From a virus: DNA of 64,000 bases. Shown here piece by piece: positions 10,921-49,010 of this stretch (position 1 is the first letter of the stretch; each line of letters starts with the position of its first letter). The stretch is taken from positions 27,540 through 91,539 of IMG/VR virus record IMGVR_UViG_3300028423_000904; one strand, written 5' to 3'. Made by a program: the position numbers and the translations under genes. The notes below the pieces were generated by a model that saw only the letters and a list, made by a program, of their open reading frames with translations, made no database searches and was not told where the DNA came from.

Positions 10921-12480
10921 ATGACAAGCTCAATTGAACATATTTCACAACAGGTTTTCAAAATCTTAAAGGGTTTTGGACATGATATCGTTTTGTTTGA
11001 TGAAGACGGACAAAAAACAGTAGATCCTGATGAAGCACGTAGATTTTATATTAAAAATCTCAAAGCAATGATTAATTTTGATGCTGATACAACCAACAAT
11101 GACCTTACTATCAATCTTTCTAAAGGAACAGAGATTGACAACATCAAAAGTATGCTCAATTCTCTGCGTAAACTGTCAAGCCGTTATATTTTGAATTACA
11201 CAGTCAAGACATTCGGAAAAACAATCGGACCAAAGGATTTTTCATTCATGGCGAAGAAAAAAGTAGACGAAAACAAAACAGTTAAAGAGTCAAGAAAGCT
11301 TAGACAACTTCCTGATATACCACAAGACGGAGACCAACTTCTTCTCAAAGGACAAGAAGCTTTTGATAAGATGTCTATGCTAAAAAGAAAAGGCTGGAAA
11401 GTAACCAATCAGGGCACGGCACCTGATGGAACAAAATACATGGTATTTCATTACAGCATGAAAAATCCTCCATCAAAATATGAAGCAGCTGAAAGCACAG
11501 TCAACGAAGGCTTTAGCGGCTGGCACGGGTCAGCTAAAAAGAGTATCAACGAGCTTGGTGATGCAAGATTGGTTGTCAAGCATCGTCGCACCGTTGATGA
11601 AGAAAAGCGCGGCGCAAGAACACGTCAAATTGAAAGTATTTTTATCGAAAATTCAGAAGGTGAACGCTTCAAGTTTCCAAGCAAAAACATCACCGCAGCC
11701 AAGGCAATGGTTCGTCATGTTAAAGAAGGCGGAACACCATTTGATGAATTTGGGCAATATATTTACGAAACCATGGAAGAGCTCAATCAGTTGAAGACAT
11801 TCCAGCGTAAGAATCGCCGCAATGATTTCTTTGAAGATGCACAGATTGGAGAGGAAATTGGCGGACGTATCAATGAACTACGGTCCAATCTCAAGCAAAT
11901 TTCAGGAGTTAAAGGATACGCATATCATTTTGAAAACTTTACCCGTGAAAATGCTGATGTAGATAAAGAAAAGCTTGACGAACTCAAGGATAGTGTTACT
12001 ATCCAATACTTCGATGAGAGCATCTCAGACAGCCTTCCATATGTAGCAAAGGTGATTGAAAACATGCGTGGACGTCAAGCGAAAGAAAATCACATTGTTG
12101 AACTTGCGCAGTATGTCATGAACAATAAAGATGACATTACAATGAGCCGTGAGATCGATAATGACGATCCAGAAAATCCATCAACACGGAATTTCAAAGA
12201 TCCTGCAACCGCAGTCTCAGCTTGGGTTAACTACCTTGCACCTATGGTAAAGGACGATAAATTGTCCAATCTTATGATGCAAGCATCAGATTCGGTTTTT
12301 GAAGTTAGCACCAAACATATTAATATGGCAGCAGCCGCAATCAATGTTATTCGTAAGAATGCGAAGATTGATGAAGGTGCAGAAGAGATCAACGAACAAA
12401 AGCCATTATACGATGAAGAGATTTCATCCATTAATGAAACATTCAGCAAGTATGATATAAAGCATATCTTCCGCGGATAA
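10921..12480 (+). CDS. Hypothetical virion structural protein
   Basis: 519 aa ORF; late promoter GATAAATA 10908-10915; followed by terminator. Confidence 0.75.
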   Translation: MTSSIEHISQQVFKILKGFGHDIVLFDEDGQKTVDPDEARRFYIKNLKAMINFDADTTNNDLTINLSKGTEIDNIKSMLNSLRKLSSRYILNYTVKTFGKTIGPKDFSFMAKKKVDENKTVKESRKLRQLPDIPQDGDQLLLKGQEAFDKMSMLKRKGWKVTNQGTAPDGTKYMVFHYSMKNPPSKYEAAESTVNEGFSGWHGSAKKSINELGDARLVVKHRRTVDEEKRGARTRQIESIFIENSEGERFKFPSKNITAAKAMVRHVKEGGTPFDEFGQYIYETMEELNQLKTFQRKNRRNDFFEDAQIGEEIGGRINELRSNLKQISGVKGYAYHFENFTRENADVDKEKLDELKDSVTIQYFDESISDSLPYVAKVIENMRGRQAKENHIVELAQYVMNNKDDITMSREIDNDDPENPSTRNFKDPATAVSAWVNYLAPMVKDDKLSNLMMQASDSVFEVSTKHINMAAAAINVIRKNAKIDEGAEEINEQKPLYDEEISSINETFSKYDIKHIFRG

Positions 12481-26441: not shown

Positions 26442-26885
26442 TTAACCGACATCAGTATGTTTACCAACCATGTTCCATTTATCAGCGGAAATCTTGATAA
26501 TACTAACTAAAGAATTTTGACCAAATAATGCCGCGGATCCAGCTGACACATTGTTAAGTGTTACACCTGTATCAGCTGAAACAGTTGTTAGTCCTGCACC
26601 GTCTTGGATTATGGTAACCACTGTGCCAATTGGAAAAGCAACACTTGCATTCGCTGGAATAGTGATTGTGTTTGCACTGGCATTATTCATAACAACAATA
26701 TTGTTTAGATCAGAAAGCGCCAGCGTATAAGTGGCCCCAGTCTGTGTATTCACTGAATAGACATGAATATCTGCAATTTCTTGCAGAGTTGTCTGGCGAC
26801 TGTTCCCGCCCTGAACAATATGCACACTCTCTGTACCATCTAATGTGCCAGCATTTGTAAGATCAGTGATTCCTTTATTGGTCAT
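26442..26885 (-). CDS. Short fibre adaptor (K.ITDL anchor plus TYTL..SD domain)
   Basis: NKGITDLT...VQGGNSR; NTQTGATYTLALSD..MNNASANTITIP. Confidence 0.75.
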   Translation of the reverse strand: MTNKGITDLTNAGTLDGTESVHIVQGGNSRQTTLQEIADIHVYSVNTQTGATYTLALSDLNNIVVMNNASANTITIPANASVAFPIGTVVTIIQDGAGLTTVSADTGVTLNNVSAGSAALFGQNSLVSIIKISADKWNMVGKHTDVG

Positions 26886-33431: not shown

Positions 33432-35204
33432 TTAAATGATGCGTAGATTACCACCAGATTGCACTGTAAGTGTTACACCAGTTGCGACTGTTAATGGTCC
33501 TGTGCAACTTGCGTTTTCTGTGCTGCCTATGGTTGTATCAGTATTTAGTGTTTGTTCATTAACACGGAAAATGTCACCTGCGCCGTTTGTCACGTCACCA
33601 GTGGTGCCATTTTCACCTTTGAAAAGTCCTGCTCCACTGCTTACATTACCAAATGCAGTGTCAATACCTTTAAGATGTGCTGCAAGGTCATCCACATCAC
33701 TGGCTTCTGAGATACTTGAATCTGGCGTGTAGTTTGCAGGATCCCACGTAATTGGAATCTGGTCACCATCTATAGAATCTACATTGATTAAGCCGGTTAC
33801 ATTGTAACGATATACTGTGATGTCTACTGCATCAAATGTACCTGATTCCACGAAAAATTGAACTGCATCATAAACAGTGGCCGAATCAATTATACCATTA
33901 AGAACCCGTGAACGATCACTACCAGTTGCACTTGAAGATTCAAATTTTGTATAATTGGTTTCTTTTGCACCAACAAATTTCAAATGTCCGTAATGACTGC
34001 TCGTTGCGGCAGCACTACCAAAATAAAGTTGTGTGTCTGTATTTGCATATGTATTGTCAGCGACGTTCATTAATTTGTATACAGAACCAGTTTCCAGTGT
34101 CGCACCTCCGTCTGCAGATACTCTTGCAAGAACGTTTTCACTGGCTGTTGATGAAAGACTGTTGACTACGATTTCACAAACATCATAACCGCTTATATCA
34201 ATATTTAATTGTGTGTCACCTGTTTCAAGATCAGCAGGTGCATAGGTATCGACTTGGATGCCGTTTGTAGTGTATACATTTACGGAACGATATTTGTAAA
34301 CGGTGATATCAACTACATCAAAACTACCAGTGGGGAGGTAAAATTGTAGCGTGTCATATACATCAGAAGTTTCAACTGAACCGTCACGTAACACGCTGGT
34401 AGAAGTCGCAGTTCCTGTAGAAGTTTTATATACTGTTACGTCTGATTTCCCGTGTCCTGTGAGTGTAATTATGCCACTAAGGCTATTAAAGGTATCAACC
34501 GAACCAAAAAATACACTGTCTCCATCATTTTGACTTGATGCTGAATCGGTAATAAATTGGTTACGGTAAACATTACCGCTCTCAACAGTGCTTCCTCCGT
34601 CTGTTGAAAGCCTCCATCTTGGTCTTTCAGACGTATCTGAAGAAATATCTGATACTGCAATTACTACTGAATCCGAATCAGACAAATCAATATTTAAATT
34701 ACCACTGACATCAACATCTGACAACGTATATGTTTCAACTGTCATATAGGGTTGTGTTGCAGGCCCTGAACTACCACCACCTGCTGTTAATAGCGCAGTA
34801 TCAATACCTTTGAGATGAGCAGCGAGGTCGTCAATATCACTGGCTTCTGCAATGCTTGAATCTGGCGTGTAATTTGCAGGATCCCAGGTAATTGGAATAA
34901 TATCACCGTCCAGCGTATCTTCACTAACTGTGGCATTGCCAATTGCAGTGTCAATACCTTTAAGATGTGCTGCAAGGTCATCTACATCACTGGCTTCTGC
35001 GATACTTGAATCTGGTGTGTAATTTGCAGGATCCCAACTGATTGTAAGAACATCACCGTCAAGCGTTGTGACGTCAACAGAGCTCAGGTCGGCAATATCT
35101 TGAGTTGTGGTTTTTCTACTATTTCCAGTTTGCACAATATAAACATTTTCTGTTCCTGAAAGTGCACTGGCATCAGTAAGTTCGGTAATTTTCTTATCAG
35201 CCAT
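33432..35204 (-). CDS. Fibre protein F3
   Basis: DKKITELT anchor; 3x NYTPDSS..EASD.DDLAAHLKGID; two LNID.S domains; C-terminal GPLTVATGVTLTV..GGNL.II. Confidence 0.75.
   Translation of the reverse strand: MADKKITELTDASALSGTENVYIVQTGNSRKTTTQDIADLSSVDVTTLDGDVLTISWDPANYTPDSSIAEASDVDDLAAHLKGIDTAIGNATVSEDTLDGDIIPITWDPANYTPDSSIAEASDIDDLAAHLKGIDTALLTAGGGSSGPATQPYMTVETYTLSDVDVSGNLNIDLSDSDSVVIAVSDISSDTSERPRWRLSTDGGSTVESGNVYRNQFITDSASSQNDGDSVFFGSVDTFNSLSGIITLTGHGKSDVTVYKTSTGTATSTSVLRDGSVETSDVYDTLQFYLPTGSFDVVDITVYKYRSVNVYTTNGIQVDTYAPADLETGDTQLNIDISGYDVCEIVVNSLSSTASENVLARVSADGGATLETGSVYKLMNVADNTYANTDTQLYFGSAAATSSHYGHLKFVGAKETNYTKFESSSATGSDRSRVLNGIIDSATVYDAVQFFVESGTFDAVDITVYRYNVTGLINVDSIDGDQIPITWDPANYTPDSSISEASDVDDLAAHLKGIDTAFGNVSSGAGLFKGENGTTGDVTNGAGDIFRVNEQTLNTDTTIGSTENASCTGPLTVATGVTLTVQSGGNLRII
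33655..35037. repeat. Three near-identical ~90 bp dispersed repeats (about 33655-33746, 34795-34886, 34945-35037)
   Basis: tcaataccttt.agatg.gc.gc.aggtc.tc.a.atcactggcttctg...a..cttgaatctgg.gtgta.tttgcaggatccca. Confidence 0.85.
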
Positions 35205-35250
35205 GTTGTGAATTCCTATTTCTAATATTTATATGTGTAATCTGGAAATA

Positions 35251-36915: not shown

Positions 36916-36939
36916 GACTAATCCTTGAATATCATATAT

Positions 36940-37920
36940 TTATAGCGTGTAAGTTCTTGATGTTCCGAAGCCGTATGTTTGTGCTGTGCGTGTCAATATA
37001 GGTGTCCAATCAGTGCTGTTGTTTGATGCCTGTAAAATATAACCTGCTGGTGCACGGTCAGATACTGATCCACTATCACGTGCTTTTAGGTAAAGTTCAC
37101 TTACAAATTGCTCATTTCCGCTACCAAAATCCCATTGTATCCATTCTGGATTTCCAACAGTGGATTCGGATGTAGCCCAATAGCCTGAACTGTTTGCAAA
37201 CGCTCCAGAAGCAGGATATGATCCTTGAGCAGAGGATGTAGAAGCGGAACCACCAACACTAACACAGAGATCTGTGCCTGAACCATCGCGTAATTCAATT
37301 TCATCCAAGCAAAATAAACGATTCCCTCCGCCGTCACTTTGAAAACAAAACAAACGCCAGTAACGATGAGCTACTGTTTGTGGTTGTTCTTGAAATAATT
37401 CTCTCTGGTCTGATAATTCATATGCTGTGGTGCTAGACGCAAAACCACCAGAGCCCAATGATAAAGTATTACTAGGAACACCACATAACGGTGTCCAGTT
37501 AACACCGTCATCTGAAAATTCAACAAGTGCTTGTCTAATTCTTTGAGATGATAAACCGCTCACAGGGGTGTGAACGATTTCTCTAATTGACCTTTCTTCA
37601 CCAGAACCAAAATCCCAGCCGATCCAAGCATCAAAATCTCCATTTTCAGCCCATTTCGAAGACCCGCTGTCAAATGCATTGCTTGGTGTATAACTGCTAT
37701 TGTATTGACCACTAGCAATTGCAGATCCCCCCACATTACCTGTGACATCTGGACCTCCAACTTCTTCTCGAAATTCAAGATTGCTCAACTGAACATTCGA
37801 ACTTCCATGCAAACAATATAGGCGCCAATACCTAGCCGATGGATATCCGCCATTTCCCAGTCCACGACGTTTACCGTTTGAACCAAATGAAGAGAAAGCA
37901 CCTGCCGCGGTTCCTAACAT
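36940..37920 (-). CDS. Tip protein T1 with two discoidin (F5/8 type C)-like domains
   Basis: RYWRL.C x2, W..WDFGSG x2; true start MLGTAAG at TAATG overlap. Confidence 0.75.
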   Translation of the reverse strand: MLGTAAGAFSSFGSNGKRRGLGNGGYPSARYWRLYCLHGSSNVQLSNLEFREEVGGPDVTGNVGGSAIASGQYNSSYTPSNAFDSGSSKWAENGDFDAWIGWDFGSGEERSIREIVHTPVSGLSSQRIRQALVEFSDDGVNWTPLCGVPSNTLSLGSGGFASSTTAYELSDQRELFQEQPQTVAHRYWRLFCFQSDGGGNRLFCLDEIELRDGSGTDLCVSVGGSASTSSAQGSYPASGAFANSSGYWATSESTVGNPEWIQWDFGSGNEQFVSELYLKARDSGSVSDRAPAGYILQASNNSTDWTPILTRTAQTYGFGTSRTYTL

Positions 37921-39485
37921 TAAGCTATTGCTCCAATCCCACCTGTTGCAATCCAATTATCAGAACCCAGTTTCATCAACGAAACTGCCTCATATTGAGA
38001 CGAAATATCACCTGAACCTGCACTGACATCATTGAGCGTTACACCTGTGTCGGCAGTAATCGTTGTTGCACCAGCACCAATTTGAATTACAGAAATTACT
38101 GCTCCTGTAGCAAAATTCACGGAAGCTTCTGTTGGTATTGTAACTGTGTTTGCACTTGCATTATCCATGGTTATTACTGATCCTGCATCATCTAAAACCA
38201 ACGTGTATGTAGTTCCGGTTTGTGTGTTTATCGTTGCATGACCAAATCGAATATCAATACCTTTTAAATGTGCCGCAAGATCATCTACATCACCTGCTTC
38301 TGCTGGAGAAGCATCAGGTGTATAATTGTCAGGTGTAAAATCAACAGGCACTGTGTCTCCGTCAATTGCATTTGAATTTACGTTCCCTGCAAAATTATAT
38401 CGATAGGCTACCACATCTAGTGAAGATATTGTTGTCCCGGAAACATAGAGTTTACATGCATTGTATACATCTGCGGTATTAACATATGCATCCCTGGTGG
38501 CGGCGCCGGACCCGGCCCCAGATGATACCTGTGCAGATGTGAAGTCAGTCTGATTATGGCCGGTTATTCTTAATACAAAATGGTGAGTAGTTTCTGAGCT
38601 AGATGGTGTTATTGGAATTTCAGTTCGTTCAGAATATGTTGGTGCCTGGTCAACTTTGAATTCGCGATAAACCGAGGCAGTTTCGTAAGTAGATCCGTTA
38701 TCAGTTGAAAATTGTAGATACGGTGCTGTATTAGCCGCAGCCGTGAGTGATCCTATAATCTCGATACAATCATAACCATCGAGACTAACAATAAGATCTG
38801 TATCTCCTGTTTCTAGGTCAGTGGCAGTATAGGATGTAACCTGAAGTCCATCAGTAGAATAAATATCACGGGTGACATATTTGTAAACAGTTACATCGAC
38901 AACGTCGAATGTTCCAGTTTCAACATATAATTGTAATGTATTATACGCATCAATAGTGTCAATAATACCAGACAGCACTCTTGATTTATTACTGTCTGGT
39001 GTGCCTGATGTTGTTTCAAACAAGGTATTTTGTGTTTGTGTGGCACCAACGAGCCGCATAACGCCATAATGTTCACCAGTACTTGTCGCACTACCAAAAT
39101 AAATTTGTGTTGTATCTGACGTATAAGTCGTGTCACCAATATTTAGAAGATGATACACAGACCCTGTTTCTAGAGTGCTGCCACCGTCTGTTGACACACG
39201 ACCCAAAACAGTTTCCGATGCTGTAGAGCTCAGCCCTTTTATTACGATTTCAACAATTTCTGCATCTGAAAGGTCAATATTAAGAGCAGCATTTCCTGCT
39301 TCTAAATCACCTGAACTGTATGTTTGCACTGTGAGAGCAGACGCTTGTGATCCACCGCCACCTCCCAGATCGGCAATATCCTGTGTTGTTGTTCTACGAC
39401 TATTGCCGCCCTGAACAACATGGATCAATTCCGTTCCAGCAAGAGCACTGGCTGCGGTTAAATCAGGTACCTTTTTATTAGCCAT
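37920..39485 (-). CDS. Fibre protein F1
   Basis: NKKVPDLT anchor; two LNIDL-type domains; DDLAAHLKGID; C-terminal TYTL..D adaptor ending GAIA. Confidence 0.75.
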   Translation of the reverse strand: MANKKVPDLTAASALAGTELIHVVQGGNSRRTTTQDIADLGGGGGSQASALTVQTYSSGDLEAGNAALNIDLSDAEIVEIVIKGLSSTASETVLGRVSTDGGSTLETGSVYHLLNIGDTTYTSDTTQIYFGSATSTGEHYGVMRLVGATQTQNTLFETTSGTPDSNKSRVLSGIIDTIDAYNTLQLYVETGTFDVVDVTVYKYVTRDIYSTDGLQVTSYTATDLETGDTDLIVSLDGYDCIEIIGSLTAAANTAPYLQFSTDNGSTYETASVYREFKVDQAPTYSERTEIPITPSSSETTHHFVLRITGHNQTDFTSAQVSSGAGSGAATRDAYVNTADVYNACKLYVSGTTISSLDVVAYRYNFAGNVNSNAIDGDTVPVDFTPDNYTPDASPAEAGDVDDLAAHLKGIDIRFGHATINTQTGTTYTLVLDDAGSVITMDNASANTVTIPTEASVNFATGAVISVIQIGAGATTITADTGVTLNDVSAGSGDISSQYEAVSLMKLGSDNWIATGGIGAIA

Positions 39486-39584
39486 GTTAAAATCCTCTAT
39501 TTCTGATATTTATATCACGAATAGAATGCTATGAAGAAATTTAGCAGGTATAATTTCATTAAATTGCTCTTATACCTAACTCAG

Positions 39585-40565
39585 CTATAGAAGCTTTGCA
39601 CCAATTTCCGCTGATTTGGCTTCTGAAATAGTCCATTCTGCCGTTGTATTTGGATTTGTTGAAAAAACTTCTCTGTATGGCTGCAACGTTGTGCTCACAG
39701 TATTGGTGGATCCATCGCCATCCGTAGTCCCTGAACGAACCATGAAATTAAAATCCTTGGATGATGCTGATCCAGCCCATGCCCTTGCTGCAACACCTAC
39801 ACCAACTACCACATATCCTGAATCAAAATCAGTGGTAAGAGTTCCAACATCAAAACTTGATCTATTCCCGGTTGTCTCTGTGCTAATATTATCTGCGTCA
39901 TCGAAACCAATCTCGTCAATGTCTGTGTGCGCCCCTGTCCATTGTGAATATGTTCCTGCTGCACTTGGACGTGTTTGGATATAGTGCATTCCAATCGTGC
40001 TTTCATCGGCAGCCATAAATGCAGACAATGTCAAGCCACTGTTGTCCCAGCCACCTAGACGCACAGTATTGATACCAGTTCTGGTTCCGCCAACAGTTGT
40101 ATCAATTGTTCCACTATCACCATGTAAAGTACCGTTTTCATAGATTTCAATAATTCCAGAAGCATCAGTAAGAAAACGAACATCAAACCGAACCAGTGAC
40201 CATGCACCAAATCCAAGAGGACCAACATTTGTCCATCCTGAACCATTATGCCATTGCCATTGGAAATTTCCGCCAAATCCGTTTGAACCGTAAGCTCTTA
40301 ATACTGGATCTCCATTTGCATCATCAAGGTAAATTGGCGTATCAAAACTATCGTCATCATTGTTGTATGCATAAAAGGACAGCCAAAAATCAGATGTTGC
40401 GGAGAAATTCAATTCAGATCCGGCAGGAGCATTGAACAAGTCTTGCATCTGAATTCCTTCATTAACATATGGACCTAAACGACCACTGTTCGTATCAGAA
40501 TTTACTCGTGATACAGTTCCAGGAAACCAATCGGCCATGGAAGTCGCAAAACTAAGAATTGCCAT
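39585..40565 (-). CDS. Family A paralogue 5
   Basis: Start MAILSFATS with GGAG RBS; late promoter 40587-40594. Confidence 0.8.
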   Translation of the reverse strand: MAILSFATSMADWFPGTVSRVNSDTNSGRLGPYVNEGIQMQDLFNAPAGSELNFSATSDFWLSFYAYNNDDDSFDTPIYLDDANGDPVLRAYGSNGFGGNFQWQWHNGSGWTNVGPLGFGAWSLVRFDVRFLTDASGIIEIYENGTLHGDSGTIDTTVGGTRTGINTVRLGGWDNSGLTLSAFMAADESTIGMHYIQTRPSAAGTYSQWTGAHTDIDEIGFDDADNISTETTGNRSSFDVGTLTTDFDSGYVVVGVGVAARAWAGSASSKDFNFMVRSGTTDGDGSTNTVSTTLQPYREVFSTNPNTTAEWTISEAKSAEIGAKLL

Positions 40566-40603
40566 TATTTTCTCCAAATCTACTAATATTTATAGTAATA
40601 TCT

Positions 40604-41584
40604 TTAAACAATTTTGATACCAATTTCCGCTGCTTTTGCTTCAGAAATTGTCCATGCAGTACTCGTATCAGGATTGACGCTAAAAATGCTCTGGTATGGC
40701 TTCTTAGCTACACCTATTGTTTTTGTTGATCCTGATCCGTCAGTTGTTCCTGATCGAGCTACTAGACTAACATCGCTTGAACTAGCTGCTCCTCCCCAGG
40801 AACGAGAACTAACACCAACACCAATAACATCGTAACCGGTATCAAAATCAGTTGTTACTGTGCTAATATTAAATGTGCTAATTTCATTTGAATTATTTGC
40901 TGAAATTGCATCGTTGTCGTTGAAACCAGATTCGTCAACATCAGTATAACTACCAGTCCAATCAGAATTTGAACCTGCCGACCCAGGACGTATTTGCACA
41001 TAATGAGCATTTCTTAGATCTTCGTCAGCACACATGATAGCACTGATATAAGTGTTTGTTCCTGGTGCACCATTGTGAATTATCGGTCTAATCTCAACTT
41101 GATTTACACCGGTTCTTGTACCACCATTGGTAGTGTCAAGGCCAGTTACCTCTCCATCTAATGTTCCGTTTACATAAACTGCTACCGATCCTGACGTTCC
41201 ATCAGTAACAAAATTCATATCAAAACGCACACTTCCACTGGTTCGATGTTCGCCAAATTTGACCATGCCAGCCCCAATATCATAATAATAGTCCATATCA
41301 CGGTAAGATGAGCATCCAAATTTCATGACCATGTCGCCATTATCTGCATAAACTCTCACTGGGCCTTCACCATCTGTAGACTGGTCAGCGTTAAAGCCTA
41401 TGTAAAACGAAAGCCAAAAATCTGTTGTTGTGGCAAAATCTAATGTTCCTAGTGTTGTCCCAAAATTGTCTAAAAAAATTCCTTCATTCACATACGGTGC
41501 TTTATAATTAGTTGTAGTTCCAACATCTGACGGATTGCCTTCGTAAAGTTCTGCTGGTGATGTTGCAAAAGCTAGAATTGCCAT
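40604..41584 (-). CDS. Family A paralogue 6
   Basis: Family motifs; late promoter 41607-41614. Confidence 0.8.
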   Translation of the reverse strand: MAILAFATSPAELYEGNPSDVGTTTNYKAPYVNEGIFLDNFGTTLGTLDFATTTDFWLSFYIGFNADQSTDGEGPVRVYADNGDMVMKFGCSSYRDMDYYYDIGAGMVKFGEHRTSGSVRFDMNFVTDGTSGSVAVYVNGTLDGEVTGLDTTNGGTRTGVNQVEIRPIIHNGAPGTNTYISAIMCADEDLRNAHYVQIRPGSAGSNSDWTGSYTDVDESGFNDNDAISANNSNEISTFNISTVTTDFDTGYDVIGVGVSSRSWGGAASSSDVSLVARSGTTDGSGSTKTIGVAKKPYQSIFSVNPDTSTAWTISEAKAAEIGIKIV

Positions 41585-41609: not shown

Positions 41610-42176
41610 TTATGGGGATGACGGTTTAACAATCATTGCTCCGTCAAGACTTGATGCAGATCTTATTGGCTGTTCTTTAACAATCATTGCTCCGTCAAGA
41701 CTTGATGCAGATCTTATTGGATGTTCTTTAACAATAATTGCTCCGACAAGACTTCATGATCTAGTAGCAGTATCTTGCTTGACGAATATTGCTCCGCCAA
41801 GTGTTCCTGTATTTGTTGATGTATCTTGCTTGACAAATACACCACCACTCATGGTTCCAATACGGGTTGAATTGTCTTGCTTGACAAATACACCACCACT
41901 CATGGTTCCAATACGGGTTGAATTGTTAACATCTACTGCAATCACACCACTCAATGCACTTAGGCGAGTGTTGTTATCAGGTTCGACGACAATGGCACCA
42001 CTTAAAGCTGTGAGTCTTGTATTAAGGTCGTATTCAAAGAAAATAGCACTATTCAAGCCATAAACCGTCGGACCTTCTTCTTGGGTGAAGAAAAGGCTGG
42101 TGCTAAGAAAGCTTACATTTGTTAAGCTCGTAGTTCCATGTAGTCCTCCCACAAGGCTGATACCAGGAATAGGCAT
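41610..42176 (-). CDS. 17-aa repeat protein R2, interrupted by in-frame TGA at 41754-41756
   Basis: Repeat continues in frame 47 codons beyond the TGA (SLVGAIIVKEHPIRSASSLDGAMIVK...PSSP, TAA at 41610). Confidence 0.75.
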
Positions 42177-42194
42177 TCGGTTATCTTCTCCATT

Positions 42195-43184
42195 TTATGA
42201 CGACAATTTGACGCCAGTCTCAGCAGCCGCTACATCAGTAACAGTCCATTCTACGCCAGTAGCAGGATCAACATCAAACAAATGCTTTACGCCTTTCTTT
42301 GCAACTGTGATGCTTTCAAGATCGCCGGTTGCGTCTGTGGTTCCAGACCGTGTGAGCATTTGGATATTTGGCAATGCCCTGACAGAACCATTGAACACCT
42401 GTGCACTTGTTCCCAGAGCTTTGATATCCCATGCAGTATCAGTAAAACTTGGATCAAGTGAAGTTTGTGTAAAGGTTGATTGGGCACCGTTCGTTTGTGC
42501 ATACAATACATCTGTATCATCCATACCAACCTCGTCAATATCCGTATAATCGCCATTCCAGTCAGTGTAATTACCATCAGCGGCAGGCTTGGTTTGGACG
42601 TAGAAAAAATTTAAAGTATTTTCATTAGCTGCAACTAGACCGGAATAATACACATATCCGCTATTCTGATTTCCGCCTATTTCGATTTTTTTGCAAAATG
42701 ATCTTGCAGCACTGTTCGTAGTGTCGAAATTTTCCTGCGACGCATACAGACCGCGATCCTTATACATATAAACGGCGCCAGTTGTTCCGTTCATCACAAC
42801 ACCGAAATCTAGACGTCGTGCAACGTCAACATTTTCATTAAAATCAGCCGCAATATCATTCCAAGCAGATCCATCCCAATACTGGAAGTGTAATCCATTT
42901 GCTACACCATTTTCTTTCCAGAGTCTGATAATAGGATTGTCATTTTCATCAAGAAATTGCATATAAGTTCCGCTTATTGCACTGGCTTCGTTAGAATAGT
43001 AATACCATGTAAACCATACTTCTGTTTCATCTGATGTCCATTCTAGATTTGAAGTTAGTGATGCATGGCTTGTCCTGAAACCTTCAGAACAATATTCTGC
43101 AATATTGTTGGTCACAGTGCTCACACCAACCACCGTGTCTCCATAAAGTTCATATGCTGTTGTTCCAAAATCAAGAATTGCCAT
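42195..43184 (-). CDS. Family A paralogue 7
   Basis: Family motifs. Confidence 0.8.
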   Translation of the reverse strand: MAILDFGTTAYELYGDTVVGVSTVTNNIAEYCSEGFRTSHASLTSNLEWTSDETEVWFTWYYYSNEASAISGTYMQFLDENDNPIIRLWKENGVANGLHFQYWDGSAWNDIAADFNENVDVARRLDFGVVMNGTTGAVYMYKDRGLYASQENFDTTNSAARSFCKKIEIGGNQNSGYVYYSGLVAANENTLNFFYVQTKPAADGNYTDWNGDYTDIDEVGMDDTDVLYAQTNGAQSTFTQTSLDPSFTDTAWDIKALGTSAQVFNGSVRALPNIQMLTRSGTTDATGDLESITVAKKGVKHLFDVDPATGVEWTVTDVAAAETGVKLSS

Positions 43185-43196
43185 TGTTTTAATCCA

Positions 43197-44183
43197 TTAA
43201 CTCGTTGAAGATCTAAGTCCTATTTCTGCTGCATCAGCATTTGTTACAGTCCATGCACTGGCGGTGTTGGGGTCTGTAGCATATATATGTCTATAGGGTT
43301 GTTTTGTGAGTGCAAGTGCGTTTGATGTTCCGGCTCCGTCTGTGGTTCCTGATCTTACTAGTGTTTCGAGATTCCAGTTGGTTGTATCGACTGATTTCCA
43401 AGCACGGGTTGAAACCCCAACTGCTACCACGTCGTGGTCTGTGTCATTAAATGCGGCAGGAATAGATGCTTTTCCAAACGTGATACTTTCGCCAGCGGTA
43501 TCATATGAAACTACATAATCTGAATCAGTATAGCCGTTCTCATCTACATCTGTATAGGCACCAGTCCAGGCTGTATAGTTACCCGCACTTGTTGGTTTTG
43601 TTTGAACATAATCAATATTCAGAGTAGGCTCGTCTGCAACCATGACAGCGGAAATCCTCAATTGGTCGCCAATATAATCATCTCCACGTATCTGAATCCC
43701 ACTTATTCCTGTGCTGCCTCTTGGGTTGGTATTTCCGCTAAATGCGGATCCGAGCAAAACGCCGTTTGCATATGCTTCAACAACACCACTCACTGCATCA
43801 AGCACGATTCTAATATCAAATCTGACCGTTTGTTCCCATGGAAAACCGGTAGAGTCGGTAACAAGGTCGGTTGTTGATGCTCCGTCATAACTACGAAAAT
43901 AAAATATATCATTATCGACTGGTGCATTGATATAAAAAATTTCTTGATCATTTTCATCCAGAAAACGCACAAAATTGCCATCAACACGCTGTCCTTCACG
44001 ATACATGTAAGCTGAGAACCAGATTTCCGTGCTGGATGTAAACGGAATAATATCACTTGTTACTGCGCCGATCCTAGCCCCCTCATTAACATATGTTCCA
44101 ATACCACTGGCAGTTGCAGAAATGCCAGATTGACTGCCTGTGTAAAAATCTGCTATGCTTGTGCCGAATGTAAGAATTGCCAT
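43197..44183 (-). CDS. Family A paralogue 8
   Basis: Family motifs; late promoter 44201-44208. Confidence 0.8.
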   Translation of the reverse strand: MAILTFGTSIADFYTGSQSGISATASGIGTYVNEGARIGAVTSDIIPFTSSTEIWFSAYMYREGQRVDGNFVRFLDENDQEIFYINAPVDNDIFYFRSYDGASTTDLVTDSTGFPWEQTVRFDIRIVLDAVSGVVEAYANGVLLGSAFSGNTNPRGSTGISGIQIRGDDYIGDQLRISAVMVADEPTLNIDYVQTKPTSAGNYTAWTGAYTDVDENGYTDSDYVVSYDTAGESITFGKASIPAAFNDTDHDVVAVGVSTRAWKSVDTTNWNLETLVRSGTTDGAGTSNALALTKQPYRHIYATDPNTASAWTVTNADAAEIGLRSSTS

Positions 44184-44211
44184 AGTATCTCCTGTTCACG
44201 TATTTACCACA

Positions 44212-45021
44212 TCACTCGCTTACCAACAGCACGTCATCTCCGTCGGTTGCATCACCTGACAATGCAAGAACATTTCCGTCCTCATCGCCTGAGTAACCCA
44301 GGCCTTCTTTTGAACGCAAGAATACAGCACCATCAATACTGGATCCACGAACACCATCTGTTTGTTTGACAAATGCAGCGCCATCAATACTGGATCCACG
44401 AACACCATCTGTTTGTTTGACAAATGCAGCGCCGTCAAGACTTGATGAGGCCGCGGCTCCAGATACTTTTACAAACAATGCACTGTTAAAGGTAGAGACC
44501 TTTGCTGATGTTTCGGGTTTCACAATAATAGCGCCTTCGGCATCAGTAACTTTGGGATTTGGATTAGCTTTGACGATAATAGCGCCTTCGGCATCAGTAA
44601 CTTTGGGATTTGGATTAGCTTTGACGATAATAGCGCCTTCGGCATCAGTAACTTTGGGATATTCAGATGCATTGACAATAACTGCACCCTCGGCATCATA
44701 TACATCAACAGTTTCGTTTCTGCGCATAATCAATGCGTTATTCATTGAGGTTACATGAGAATCGTCACCTGAACGTCCAATAATAACAGCATTGTTAATT
44801 GTGGATACATATGATTTGATATCAAATTTGAATATGATAGCGCCGCCCAGAGCATCCGTTCTGATTTGAACGTCTACTGTGTAAAAAACAGCACCACTAA
44901 GTGTTTGCACACTTGGGCCGTCGTCTTGTTGAAAGAATATAGCACCGTTCAATTGCTGGACGGCGGTAAGACTGGTTGTCCCCATTAAGGCACTGATGGG
45001 CGTGATACCAACAATAGGCAT
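44212..45021 (-). CDS. 17-aa repeat protein R1 (about 13 repeats)
   Basis: PKVTDAEGAIIVKANPN and VRGSSIDGAAFVKQTDG units; N-terminus MPIVGI..GTTSLT shared with R2. Confidence 0.8.
   Translation of the reverse strand: MPIVGITPISALMGTTSLTAVQQLNGAIFFQQDDGPSVQTLSGAVFYTVDVQIRTDALGGAIIFKFDIKSYVSTINNAVIIGRSGDDSHVTSMNNALIMRRNETVDVYDAEGAVIVNASEYPKVTDAEGAIIVKANPNPKVTDAEGAIIVKANPNPKVTDAEGAIIVKPETSAKVSTFNSALFVKVSGAAASSSLDGAAFVKQTDGVRGSSIDGAAFVKQTDGVRGSSIDGAVFLRSKEGLGYSGDEDGNVLALSGDATDGDDVLLVSE
44331..44660. repeat. 51-bp tandem coding repeats inside R1
   Basis: Near-exact 51 nt units at about 44331-44431 and 44524-44660. Confidence 0.85.
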
Positions 45022-46115
45022 TATGCATCACCCTCGAGTTTCAATTTGCTTGACCCATCACTCATGTCACCTGTAAGTGTAATTTGGTCAGTTCCGGTTT
45101 GTTCATCACCTTTGAGCAATACGAAGTTTTCCTGTATTGCTCGTACTCCTATTTCGGTTGATTTGGCGGCAGGGACAGACCATTGAAATCCAGTGCTAGG
45201 GTCGTTGGTTATTATTTGAGTTAGTGATCTTTTTGTTGGAGTTAATGAAAGTGATCCTAGATCACTCAGTGTTCCACTTGAATTTGCGACCAATTCAATA
45301 CCATTAAGAGTAGAGCTGGTTGAACCCTGATAAGAACGTGCACCAATACCAACAGCCACAACTTCAAATTGTGAATCAAAATCTGTTGTCAGAGTATCTG
45401 GACTAACAGTGAACCTTGCTCCTTCTGTTCCTGTTCCAATATTCGTGCTTGAATCAAAGCCAACACCGTCAATGAATTGATATCCGCCTTGCCACTCGGT
45501 ATATGTTCCATTTGATCCTGGAGTTGTTTGGACATAACGCATGATAAGTGTGTCTTCGTCTGCTGCTATGATAGCTGAATAATATGCTGTGCCGCCAACG
45601 CCATTTGTTTCGCTAAGATCTCCAATACCCAAGCTTTTAACACCTGATCTGCTTCCTGAGTTGGTTGTGTCACCGGTGAATGTAGCTTGCAGGGTTTCAT
45701 CACGATATACTTGTATAGATCCAGATTCATCCATAACAATGTGAATGTCAATTCTTGCAAGTGTGGTTACGTCTTGCGCCCAGGTTGTGTCAAAAGCAAC
45801 CCATGAAGTTCCATTGAAGTATTCACTATCTAAACGATCTGTTTCTTGGTGTGGTTTGTAGAGACGAAAAATTCCTGTGTCATTTTCATCATAAATGTAT
45901 ATCGCTGTGCCTTGTGTTTCAAAGTTTTCATCGCATTTGAAATAAAAGCTGACCCAAGCTTCTGAAACCGGTCTCCATTCGATAGTCTTGGTAGCGGTCG
46001 CATCATATGTTACAATTGATTCATTACAATACGGAGCGGTGTAATTAGTAGATGACCCGCCCTCGTTTTCATCAAAAATATCCCGACGTGACGTTGCAAA
46101 TCCAAGAAGTCCCAT
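45021..46115 (-). CDS. Family A paralogue 9 with LxGD C-terminal tail
   Basis: Family motifs plus FVLLKGDEQTGTDQITLTGDMSDG. Confidence 0.8.
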   Translation of the reverse strand: MGLLGFATSRRDIFDENEGGSSTNYTAPYCNESIVTYDATATKTIEWRPVSEAWVSFYFKCDENFETQGTAIYIYDENDTGIFRLYKPHQETDRLDSEYFNGTSWVAFDTTWAQDVTTLARIDIHIVMDESGSIQVYRDETLQATFTGDTTNSGSRSGVKSLGIGDLSETNGVGGTAYYSAIIAADEDTLIMRYVQTTPGSNGTYTEWQGGYQFIDGVGFDSSTNIGTGTEGARFTVSPDTLTTDFDSQFEVVAVGIGARSYQGSTSSTLNGIELVANSSGTLSDLGSLSLTPTKRSLTQIITNDPSTGFQWSVPAAKSTEIGVRAIQENFVLLKGDEQTGTDQITLTGDMSDGSSKLKLEGDA

Positions 46116-46128
46116 CAATTACCTTTCG

Positions 46129-47109
46129 TTAGCTGTTAACTGACTTGACGCCAATTTCGGCATTTTTTGCATTGGTTACAGTCCAAGTTGCACCGGTATT
46201 TGGATCTGTATCAAAAATTGCGTTGTATGTTTGTTTACCAATATCCAAGTTCTTGGTAGAACTAAATTCATCAGTTCCGCTTGAATGAACGGCAAATTGT
46301 ATGTCTGGTGAGCTAGGAGTACCTTTGTTTGCTCTGCCACTAACTCCCACGGCTGAAACATAATAGCCACTGTCAAAGTCAGATGTTATTGATCCTTGAC
46401 CAAAAGTAGAAATTTGATCAGGGCCTGGTGTTCTAATAGAGTCTAGATCTCCAAACCCTGTTTCGTCGATAGCAGTATGATCACCACTCCATGAAGAATA
46501 TGATCCCACGCTGCTTGGTTTGGTTTGAACATAATATGTTGAACGTGTATCTGCGTCTGCAACAAAAACTGCCGACACTGTGGTATGTACGTCATAAAAT
46601 CCCGATGCTTGGCCGGATCCAGCCCATCCTGCTTTGGCTATTTGTGTTGCTGAGCGTAGTATGGTATCTCCGTCAAAACGTCCCTGGCTGACTCCTCCTT
46701 CGAAAAACTCCACAACTCCAGCTGAATTATCCATAACGATGTGCAAATCCCAGCGACCTCGATTTAATGCACCAGTGGTAAACAGGGTAGTCCAGGTTGA
46801 ACCATCATAAGATTGAACATTCACTGCACTGCTTTCGTCAATGGTATCAATTCGAAACAATGTTTCATCATTTTCACCATAAATTGTTACATAATCTGTA
46901 TTCATATCACCAGGGCGATTGCAATACTGATACCATGCAATCCACACATCGGTTTGACCAGTCCAGCTAAGATAAGCTCTTGACCCACTATCAACCCAAA
47001 GCATTCCTTCATGTGCATATGGAGAAACATTTGATGTTGTTGACACCGGTTTGGCTGGTTCTGATGTAAAGAAATCAATAATTGATGTTCCGAATGTAAG
47101 AATTGTCAT
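46129..47109 (-). CDS. Family A paralogue 10
   Basis: Family motifs. Confidence 0.8.
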   Translation of the reverse strand: MTILTFGTSIIDFFTSEPAKPVSTTSNVSPYAHEGMLWVDSGSRAYLSWTGQTDVWIAWYQYCNRPGDMNTDYVTIYGENDETLFRIDTIDESSAVNVQSYDGSTWTTLFTTGALNRGRWDLHIVMDNSAGVVEFFEGGVSQGRFDGDTILRSATQIAKAGWAGSGQASGFYDVHTTVSAVFVADADTRSTYYVQTKPSSVGSYSSWSGDHTAIDETGFGDLDSIRTPGPDQISTFGQGSITSDFDSGYYVSAVGVSGRANKGTPSSPDIQFAVHSSGTDEFSSTKNLDIGKQTYNAIFDTDPNTGATWTVTNAKNAEIGVKSVNS

Positions 47110-47121
47110 TGTCGTTCCTTT

Positions 47122-47889
47122 TTATGATATGTTCAATGCTGAATTGACAAATATTTTGGTAGGTGAAAGAACTACATAAAATAGCATGTCTTCTGCCGAC
47201 GGAGTTGTTGTCAATGTAGGAGAAGTTCCTGAAGGAAAGACCCAGTTAGCACCATATGACAATGTTCTAGATCCTGTGCCGTCTTGGATTACACGGATAT
47301 ATCCACTTTGTCCGGGTTTTGCATTTGATGGGTTGTCCAGTGTTCTATTTCCAGCAAGTGTCAATGAGAAGTTTATGCCTGTGCTGAAATCAACGCTCAC
47401 TGTTGCAGCATCCGTGAGCGTGGTTTCACTGGCTGCACCCCAGGTTTGGTCAGTTGAAAGTATTTTGTCAGCTGTGTTGCTGAGAAAATCTGCGCTTGTT
47501 GCTTCTGGCAAACGAGCAATATCAATGGTGCCTGAAACAATAGCACTTCCTGACAAGTTAGTAATATTGTTGCTGGTGGCATCAATTGTTTTGTTTGTTA
47601 GTGTCTGTGCTGTGTCTGTGTCTGCAATTTGTTTCCACACTGCGGCACTTGCTGTGTTGTCCAAGCAATAATAAACTAGGTTATTATTGGAATCTACCCA
47701 AAGATTTCCTAGTTTGTATTCGTCGTCATTTACTGTTGGCGCTGTTGTGTCTGTGGCAACAAATGCCACGCTGTCAGACGTGTTGTCTAGCTGTTCTCGC
47801 AAGTCTTCAGCACTAATAGCACCGACACCGTTCGTTGGAAACAAGCTCAGTGTTTCAGCACTGTATGTTACTGGATTTAATCTACTCAT
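47122..47889 (-). CDS. Short fibre protein B1
   Basis: Paralogue of B2 N-half (LFPTNGVG.I...DLR.QLDN..DS; QTLTNKT; DFSTGINF domain) without LamG; late promoter 47908-47915. Confidence 0.75.
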   Translation of the reverse strand: MSRLNPVTYSAETLSLFPTNGVGAISAEDLREQLDNTSDSVAFVATDTTAPTVNDDEYKLGNLWVDSNNNLVYYCLDNTASAAVWKQIADTDTAQTLTNKTIDATSNNITNLSGSAIVSGTIDIARLPEATSADFLSNTADKILSTDQTWGAASETTLTDAATVSVDFSTGINFSLTLAGNRTLDNPSNAKPGQSGYIRVIQDGTGSRTLSYGANWVFPSGTSPTLTTTPSAEDMLFYVVLSPTKIFVNSALNIS

Positions 47890-47945
47890 TGACAATCTCC
47901 CTTCAAATATTTATCGAAACTCTGGATGATAATAATAAAGCGAGA

Positions 47946-49010
47946 TTAGTAAACGAGGTGGTCGTTTCCATCTGTTGCGTCACCTTCAAGGTGAACAGTG
48001 TCAGTCCCAGACTGTTCATCACCTTCAAGCAAGACAAAATCATTTACACTATTTTCAGATTGGAAGCCTATCTCGGCTGCCTTTGCATTTGCAAATGTCC
48101 AAGATAAACTAGTAGACGGATCGAGATGAAATACGCTTTTTACGTGTTCAGGATAATCTGCCAAGCTTTCTGATTCTCCGAAATCATCTGTTCCACCAGA
48201 ACGCATCATGAGTCTTAGACCGTCAACACCGGCATTGTCTGACCATGTTCTTGCACTTAATCCAACACCGATAACTTCAGTCAAGTTACCAAATTCTTCT
48301 AGAATGTCTGTTTGGTTATATGTAACCCTGTCGCTGGCAGTCGTTGATGCTACAAACTCTCGGTCATATACACCAGTTCCGTCGATCAATCCAAAATCAG
48401 TTGTATTCCATTCTGCATAGGTTCCAGCCGAAGCTGGCTTGGTTTGGACATATTCGATCTCTGTGGATATTTCGTCTGACACAAAGAATGCAGAAAATGT
48501 AGTGGTTCCAGTATTGTTGCTTGAACCTGTCATGCGGTTAGTAAAAGACCGTGCCCCGCCGTTTGTGGTGTCTCCTGACCATGAACTAGCCAAAACACCG
48601 CTATTATAAACTTCAGCAACGCCAGTTGCATCGATAAGAATATGCACGTCTTGTCTTATAGCAGTTGTAGATATATCACCAAATGTGGCTACTGGTTGGT
48701 ATGCAGCACCGTCGTAATATTCCCAGACACAATTTGTTCCAGCAACACTACAACGCATAACAACTTCATTGTTTTCGTCATAGATATAAAATATGTCTCC
48801 ATCAGAACCTGTTGACAGGTTTCTCATATGAAAACTGATCCAGATTTCTGTAGCGTTCTGCCATTCACCCAAATCAACGAAATGGTCATTGGGCAATTGT
48901 ACACCTTCCTGCACAAACGGACCTATATATGTAGAATCGGTTTGTGCATTATAATGGTAAAAGCCCGAGCCAAAGTCTGCTGGAGAAGTTCCGAAATTAA
49001 GAATAGCCAT
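47946..49010 (-). CDS. Family A paralogue 11 with LxGD C-terminal tail
   Basis: Family motifs plus FVLLEGDEQSGTDTVHLEGDATDG; late promoter 49031-49038. Confidence 0.8.
   Translation of the reverse strand: MAILNFGTSPADFGSGFYHYNAQTDSTYIGPFVQEGVQLPNDHFVDLGEWQNATEIWISFHMRNLSTGSDGDIFYIYDENNEVVMRCSVAGTNCVWEYYDGAAYQPVATFGDISTTAIRQDVHILIDATGVAEVYNSGVLASSWSGDTTNGGARSFTNRMTGSSNNTGTTTFSAFFVSDEISTEIEYVQTKPASAGTYAEWNTTDFGLIDGTGVYDREFVASTTASDRVTYNQTDILEEFGNLTEVIGVGLSARTWSDNAGVDGLRLMMRSGGTDDFGESESLADYPEHVKSVFHLDPSTSLSWTFANAKAAEIGFQSENSVNDFVLLEGDEQSGTDTVHLEGDATDGNDHLVY

Follow-up and report, generated by a model that had tools for sequence, protein, structure and literature searches.

The DNA analysed here, called the window throughout, is the 3' 64 kb of a 91.5-kb viral record from IMG/VR (IMGVR_UViG_3300028423_000904; completeness about 25% according to CheckV). 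Its subject is two repeat-protein genes, R1 and R2, and the paralogous genes of family A among which they lie. A minus-strand block at 18800-49010, in which proteins match PHROG tail-fibre, baseplate-wedge, minor-tail and virion structural families, encodes 11 A paralogues of about 330 amino acids (aa) each; single members are named below by their lower coordinate. As the initial annotation had stated, the unit [A, A, repeat protein] occurs twice in tandem. The minus-strand order is A 46129 (46129-47109, 326 aa), A 45021 (45021-46118, 365 aa), R1 (44212-45021), A 43197 (43197-44183, 328 aa), A 42195 (42195-43184, 329 aa) and R2, which starts at 42176 directly after the latter; directly downstream of R2 on the same strand is A 40604 (40604-41584, 326 aa), followed by A 39585 (39585-40577, 330 aa). 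The genes around R1 and R2 are tightly packed, with gaps of 10-28 nucleotides (nt), and the TAA stop codon of A 45021 and the ATG of R1 have one base in common. In a tree of the A paralogues, both A genes that precede an R gene fall into one clade together with A 25409 (support 87/89), a grouping that lends weak support to duplication of the whole [A, A, R] unit.

Both R genes are made of a 17-aa repeat. Tandem Repeats Finder detected 51-nt arrays in each of them, with matches of 79-100%, and no 17-residue period was found in any other frame of the 91.5-kb record. The period is strict across the 13 units of R1 (aa 18-240) and the 10 units in the frame of R2, with just two one-residue insertions, both in R1. 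The unit counts given earlier therefore hold for R1 and for the R2 frame as a whole, but only seven R2 units and the start of an eighth precede an in-frame TGA. The distinct classes of units and their recent duplications were also borne out: units 7 and 8 of R1 are identical in 51 of 51 nt and units 5 and 6 of R2 in 48 of 51; other pairs share merely 11-30 of 51 nt.

It can be seen that the R proteins have a three-part layout. First, there is a conserved N-terminal module, which in R1 covers aa 1-68 (44818-45021; a 17-residue leader and units 1-3) and is paralogous to the N-terminus of R2 (46% identity). Secondly, there are protein-specific spacer units, some of them recently duplicated; in R1 these are units 4-10 (44455-44817), three copies of which are near-identical. 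Thirdly, exactly three units, all belonging to a single class, make up a C-terminal set; in R1 this is the Ser-Ser-Leu/Ile-Asp-Gly-Ala class (aa 190-240, 44302-44454). R1 then closes with an acidic, Gly-rich tail of 29 aa (aa 241-269) and a TGA stop (44212-44301). The part of R2 up to its TGA (41757-42176, 140 aa) comprises the N-terminal module, units 4-7 and the start of unit 8. Over the first 68 codons, R1 and R2 differ at a proportion of synonymous sites (pS) of 0.76, which is saturating, versus a proportion of nonsynonymous sites (pN) of 0.40, indicating that the N-termini have been selected as protein, under purifying selection. Shine-Dalgarno sites and operon-like spacing were found at both R genes. 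Judged by these features of their sequence, R1 and R2 are real genes.

R2 had been taken to extend uninterrupted to 41610. This overlooked an in-frame TGA at 41754-41756 (codon 141, minus strand), within unit 8, which is one base from the TCA (Ser) at the matching place in units 9 and 10. Beyond it the frame continues for 47 codons and a TAA at 41610-41612 (41610-41753 in all), completing unit 8 and adding a further two; with the start of unit 8 this stretch forms the three-unit C-terminal module. The TGA removes the best-conserved part of R2, and no further defect was seen in the frame after it. The gap between R2 and the next gene is 25 nt when the continuation is translated and 169 nt when it is not. 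Because the frame is otherwise undamaged and the intergenic gap is normal only with translation, the stop is probably recent, polymorphic or an error. General recoding of TGA was also considered; it is unlikely, since TGA serves as an ordinary stop at the end of six other genes of the block and no tRNA gene is present in the 91.5-kb record. As for public reads, two runs contained the stretch only as contigs of 81-246 nt, and the TGA position was covered by none of them. Four short contigs (81-246 nt) from a saltern metagenome run match 42310-42555, 44353-44488 and 44887-45061, three being identical and one having 8 differences; they hint at a low-coverage trace of this phage or a close relative in that sample.

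R-type units were sought across the 2.9 million viral contigs of IMG/VR with two pattern scans and one profile scan. Beyond this record they were found in one contig only, L005 (9.6 kb, 63% guanine plus cytosine (GC), siphovirus-like), which was first met in a profile search of A-bearing records. The gene order in L005 is a J-like tail protein of 1016 aa (phrog_1101; expect value (E) 1e-182), then a 131-aa protein and then an A homologue; the 131-aa protein stops 21 nt before the latter, which is 39% identical to A 43197. Three 17-residue units occupy the last 45 residues of the 131-aa protein and have 69% identity (E 1e-16) to the three-unit C-terminal module of R2, that is, to the units that follow the TGA. 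The corresponding module of R1 was aligned with both and is 44% identical to that of L005. At the DNA level the L005 and R2 modules are 58% identical and their GC contents, 61% and 38%, each fit their own genome; it follows that the amino-acid sequence of the module has been held by selection in two very different phages. Between these genomes, which differ widely in GC, the module shows higher identity (69%) than the A proteins beside it (35-39%). A C-terminal block of exactly three units is kept in R1, R2 and L005 and travels with A genes, which suggests that it is one domain and not three separate sockets.

The N-terminal 85 aa of the L005 131-aa protein, taken as a virion anchor domain, recur in Bordetella phage CN1 and its relatives at the start of a protein of 225 aa, whose annotation is F5/8 type C (discoidin lectin) domain protein. 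The CN1 protein, gp79 (YP_009793933), shares 39% identity with it over this domain, lies in a tail module and carries the F5/8 type C annotation in one of its two database records. It differs in being a single polypeptide with an annotated lectin-type domain, whereas in L005 the anchor bears three R-type coils and the lectin-like A is encoded apart. By analogy, the coils in L005 may replace a covalent link between anchor and lectin. A separate, weaker lead comes from L006, a 142-kb viral contig, in which the gene for a 163-aa protein (11000-11491) right after an A homologue opens with the five-residue N-terminal peptide of R1 and R2; the remainder of the protein is unrelated. In the DNA examined this peptide starts just these three genes, and it may be a common N-terminal docking peptide.

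Apart from L005, relatives of R were not encountered. None was found in Pfam, PHROGs or PDB sequences, and a search of 1.84 billion representatives returned unrelated repeat proteins only. None was found either in a 5.8-billion-cluster search, in 50,697 phage records, in JGI metagenome contigs or in 401 genomes of one bacterial class, and pattern scans of GTDB genomes gave four chance matches only. R1 and R2 are themselves both missing from a 15-billion-protein collection in which the adjoining A proteins of the same contig are present; the blanks of protein-level searches are for this reason weak evidence, and repeat genes of the R type may be under-represented in protein databases. Ten GC-rich IMG/VR contigs (L021-L027 and L029-L031) matched one R pattern through another repeat of roughly 17 codons, which is Arg/Val-rich in the matched frame and is probably the wrong frame of an unrelated repeat gene.

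We then considered the A proteins. All seven that were scanned are full-length matches to phrog_6368, a family of unknown function (E 3e-28 to 1e-40, spanning at least positions 20-325 of 328 and in six cases starting at position 1); the values are 9e-30 for A 46129, whose match is full length, 3e-33 for A 40604 and 1e-40 for A 43197. Most A proteins had been described as stopping shortly after a conserved Gly, and this is the case: nine of the 11 end 5-7 residues past it and the other two carry a tail of 35-40 aa. A 43197 was chosen for modelling by AlphaFold2 on a 28-sequence alignment, and the resulting model has no low-confidence segment (mean predicted local distance difference test score (pLDDT) 89, predicted template-modelling score (pTM) 0.88). 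Residues 1-194 of the model superpose on ConA/LamG-type lectins, polysaccharide lyases, carbohydrate-binding modules (CBMs) and phage baseplate modules with Z 12-16.6, a root-mean-square deviation of about 3 Å over 160-187 aligned residues and a Foldseek probability of 1.00, and every row of the VIA structural alignments lies within these residues. This N-domain is thus predicted to be a ConA/LamG-like jelly roll and, on the model, it probably binds glycans. The C-terminal part is modelled as a seven-strand sandwich, in which the conserved C-terminus itself forms a helix (313-318) and the last strand (320-327, pLDDT 86-97). The suggestion that A ends as if its last strand were missing is contradicted by this result; as modelled, A is a complete two-domain protein that would need no donated strand.

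Conservation within the family follows the same division. The last segment of A is among the best conserved across the paralogues (50% identity versus 30% in the lectin domain), and in the 28-row alignment all columns conserved at 90% or more, the initial Met aside, lie in the C-domain. Such a distribution is in keeping with a binding domain that varies while its mount is conserved, and the lack of any such N-domain column beyond the initial Met would argue for binding and not for catalysis. Whole-length structural matches of A, with template-modelling (TM) scores of up to 0.88, came from many phages, of which several have multiple copies. Structural look-alikes of the C-domain in the Atlas are stand-alone viral proteins of 140-181 aa, which is a lead only. 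The closest orthologues of A by sequence, P0006-P0008, with up to 74% identity, come from one 32-kb Logan contig.

A homologues also occur where R does not. Full-length homologues, one in each case, are encoded by the complete genomes of VpV262, Ruegeria phage V13 and Brevundimonas phage Polewnik, and more distant relatives, mainly matching the C-domain, by IMG/VR records rated 96-100% complete. Six-frame searches of all these genomes with R1 or an R1/R2 profile detected no R, which indicates that A does not depend on R to fold. A relatives from other phages, including the single-copy ones in genomes without R, share the same C-terminal end point. The homologues lie in tail modules, two genes after the tape measure in Polewnik and beside tubular tail protein B in VpV262. 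In the IMG/VR collection searched, A relatives were detectable in only 10 contigs, and a metagenome scan with an A profile gave no match.

The VpV262 homologue, ORFO (AAM28406, 359 aa), is a member of PHROG 6368 that resembles A in 32% identity over 99% of the length, in its model (TM 0.88), in its conserved start and C-terminal end, and in its position in the tail gene region. It differs in being single-copy in a 46-kb podovirus, with no repeat protein in its vicinity and no tail extension, whereas the giant myovirus-type genome studied here carries 11 paralogues. A VpV262 frame with polysaccharide-lyase similarity was regarded by Hardies et al. (PMC4819975) as a prospective tail-fibre module, and this frame is presumably ORFO. 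PHROG 6368, to which no function had been assigned, can now be given a fold and a place in a tail-fibre context. Siphovirus baseplate CBMs, namely CBM2 of the evolved Dit of Lactobacillus phage J-1 (5ly8) and the modules of mycobacteriophage Douge (8zdo) and of TM4 gp23 (9n6a), share the jelly-roll fold class of the A N-domain, by superposition (Z 12.4-12.9) and by Foldseek, and are likewise adhesion modules of phage tails. They are insertions or domains in larger baseplate proteins, whereas A is free-standing and has two domains, one of them its own conserved C-domain.

Which fold the R repeats adopt was approached with single-chain predictions. AlphaFold2, run on the single R1 sequence as a monomer, gave an all-beta model in which every unit contributes two strands (mean pLDDT 63, 70-85 in the centre; pTM 0.61). 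Its neighbours in VIA are parallel beta-helices, with Z 15-17 over about 220-250 residues, and include phage tailspikes, AlgE4 and the antifreeze protein 3p4g; Foldseek returned pentapeptide-repeat solenoids (best E 0.008), although repeats inflate such scores. The ESM Atlas model of R is similar in kind, and both predictors yield a regular solenoid (pTM 0.53-0.61). According to these models, one 17-residue unit most likely makes up a single coil of a parallel beta-helix or solenoid, and there is moderate support for R as an autonomous beta-helical rod. In having one repeat per coil, the R1 model resembles single-chain beta-helix and solenoid proteins such as phage tailspikes, the AlgE4 A-module (2pyg), the Marinomonas antifreeze protein (3p4g) and a pentapeptide-repeat protein (3du1). 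R differs from them in its lack of sequence homology, its 17-residue coil, the absence of a catalytic or receptor domain, its size (188-269 aa) and the modest confidence of the model.

The repeats might instead adopt a fold common in phage fibres, a shaft in which three identical chains obligately form a triple beta-helix or beta-spiral. Hydropathy of the unit peaks at the adjacent positions 10-12 of 17 (means 2.4, 3.9 and 3.6), a pattern of the sequence only, which would suit burial on more than one face. The N-terminus of R1 resembles a unit of the long repeat protein P0024, taken as fibre-like; the three coils of L005 alone would make a very small single-chain solenoid; and the trimeric gp5 C-terminal family is among the neighbours of the Atlas model. 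The regular solenoid obtained from both single-chain predictors speaks against a trimer, as does the failure of the R sequence to match any known trimeric shaft family. We regard the trimeric fold as possible but rather doubtful; it concerns the fold only and would fit either of the two functional readings that are weighed next.

Since the three-unit set acts as a single domain that accompanies A genes, we read R1 and R2 as connecting rods in which the C-terminal module probably serves to mount or contact an A lectin. In this proposal, the block would belong to a cluster of tail-fibre and adhesin genes in a T4-like giant phage, and R1 and R2 would be paralogous rods specific to the lineage. 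Each would begin with the conserved N-terminal module of about 68 aa and continue with 4-7 spacer coils, the number of which would shift by gain or loss of 51-nt units and would set the length of the rod. Each would end with the three-coil module, which would mount or contact the A protein encoded next to it; in an unrelated phage this module recurs directly upstream of an A gene, joined to another virion anchor domain. We favour this reading tentatively, giving it a little short of an even chance; contact between R and A is suggested by gene order and by one additional contig, and a location in the virion by the gene context.

Several points weigh against it. The synteny comes from L005 alone. 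In the three pairs of module and downstream A, the modules do not co-vary with A, and the L005 A resembles A 40604 no more than it does other paralogues. Most A genes in the window follow proteins without an R-type end, and R2 as assembled lacks its C-terminal module owing to the TGA. R1 was modelled from its single sequence with a mean pLDDT of 63, and for obligate trimeric beta-helices monomer models can mislead (bioRxiv 10.1101/2023.03.14.532539).

The same facts bear on one alternative, that R1 and R2 act on their own as fibrous proteins (whisker, side fibre or spacer) without direct contact to A, adjacent to it only because genes of fibre modules cluster. It would account for the wide occurrence of A homologues without R, for the self-contained beta-helix modelled for R, for the absence of co-variation between modules and downstream A proteins, and for the A genes of the window that follow unrelated proteins. 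It accounts less well for L005: the sole other contig with R-type units has them 21 nt upstream of an A gene, in a collection where only 10 contigs have a detectable A relative, and the module there is better conserved than the neighbouring A proteins despite the very different GC. This alternative is possible, but we consider it on the unlikely side.

In a more elaborate arrangement, A lectins would be strung end to end by R1 and R2, as rigid connectors, to give a segmented fibre with several lectins. The N-terminal module, with its MPIPG-type peptide, would dock the upstream A and the three-coil module the downstream A, and the number of spacers, changing in 51-nt steps, would set the spacing. 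If true, this would be a real beads-on-a-string appendage formed without strand donation. At present it is improbable.

That the R genes are decaying or non-functional repeat open reading frames is very unlikely. The premature TGA in R2, the absence of R1 and R2 from the 15-billion-protein collection and the lack of homologues among the 1.84 billion representatives would agree with decay; they are countered by the purifying selection on the N-terminal modules, the ribosome-binding sites and tight operon spacing, the intact state of R1, and the part of R2 after the TGA, which is undamaged and 69% identical to an intact protein of another phage.

The least probable reading, which we can hardly credit, is that of the initial annotation, in which A lacks the last strand of its sandwich, each R unit donates one, and the R gene serves as a barcode for the number and order of lectin beads: the tandem [A, A, R] arrangement, the classes of units and the R-type units beside A in L005 would suit it, but the last strand 320-327 is confidently modelled in A, the end point is the same in all members of the family, including the single-copy proteins of VpV262, V13 and Polewnik without R, there are 23 units versus 11 A genes with some adjacent units identical, the C-terminal set is kept as a block of three, and the most hydrophobic positions of the unit are adjacent, not alternating with polar ones. 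The three findings named in that annotation as able to overturn its model, an A C-domain predicted with a complete fold, R proteins folding autonomously (here in a model of pLDDT 63) and A in genomes lacking R, were all made. The analogy drawn with chaperone-usher pili (Fim and Pap pilins) extends to bead-like beta-sandwich subunits and a strand-rich partner. In pilins the donor strand is an N-terminal extension of the next subunit, and there is no separate scaffold. Here the acceptor fold is modelled as complete, and the would-be donors are absent from most genomes that have the acceptor. Pilus-like strand donation can thus be set aside. As for the co-occurrence of A and R in other genomes, L005 places three R-type units directly upstream of A, but complete genomes carry A without R. 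A weaker idea seems to survive on this sequence evidence, namely an association of R-type units with A proteins.

In uncultured giant phages, adhesin-like genes are present in large numbers. If the connector reading is true, the three-coil module would be a small transferable docking element for widespread lectin-like phage proteins, by which many different glycan binders could be fixed to one tail, and the spacer length would be tunable through simple gain or loss of repeats.

Upstream of the tandem units, the fibre block begins with A 47946 (47946-49010, minus strand, 354 aa; phrog_6368, E 3e-28), which ends in an acidic, Gly-rich tail. Between it and A 46129 lies a gene for a 257-aa fibre-type protein (47122-47895, minus strand; PHROG tail-fibre families, phrog_4757, E 5e-18). 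The tails of A 47946 (47949-48050) and A 45021 (45024-45137) are 35-40 aa long, acidic and Gly-rich, with a period of about 13 residues, and are 59% identical to each other over 29 aa; that of A 45021 is kept in its orthologue P0007. A weaker version of the motif is found in the R1 tail (44215-44301; 50% over 24 aa to the A 47946 tail, E 0.014 in a small database) and nowhere else in the window. A search with the tail region returned the query itself as its sole match. A foldon-like role for the C-terminal tails was considered but not retained.

Exact T4-type late-promoter octamers were found on the minus strand just 5' of four genes of the fibre block, at 39507-39514, 40587-40594 (just upstream of A 39585), 35226-35233 and 36937-36944, and none was found between 41000 and 49000. 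Three fibre-type proteins of the block, encoded at 33432-35204 (590 aa), 37920-39485 (521 aa) and 26442-26885 (147 aa), are nearly alike in their first 40 residues. The 521-aa and 147-aa proteins also have in common a C-terminal domain of about 100 aa, which recurs in a 144-aa protein encoded upstream of the A gene of L006.

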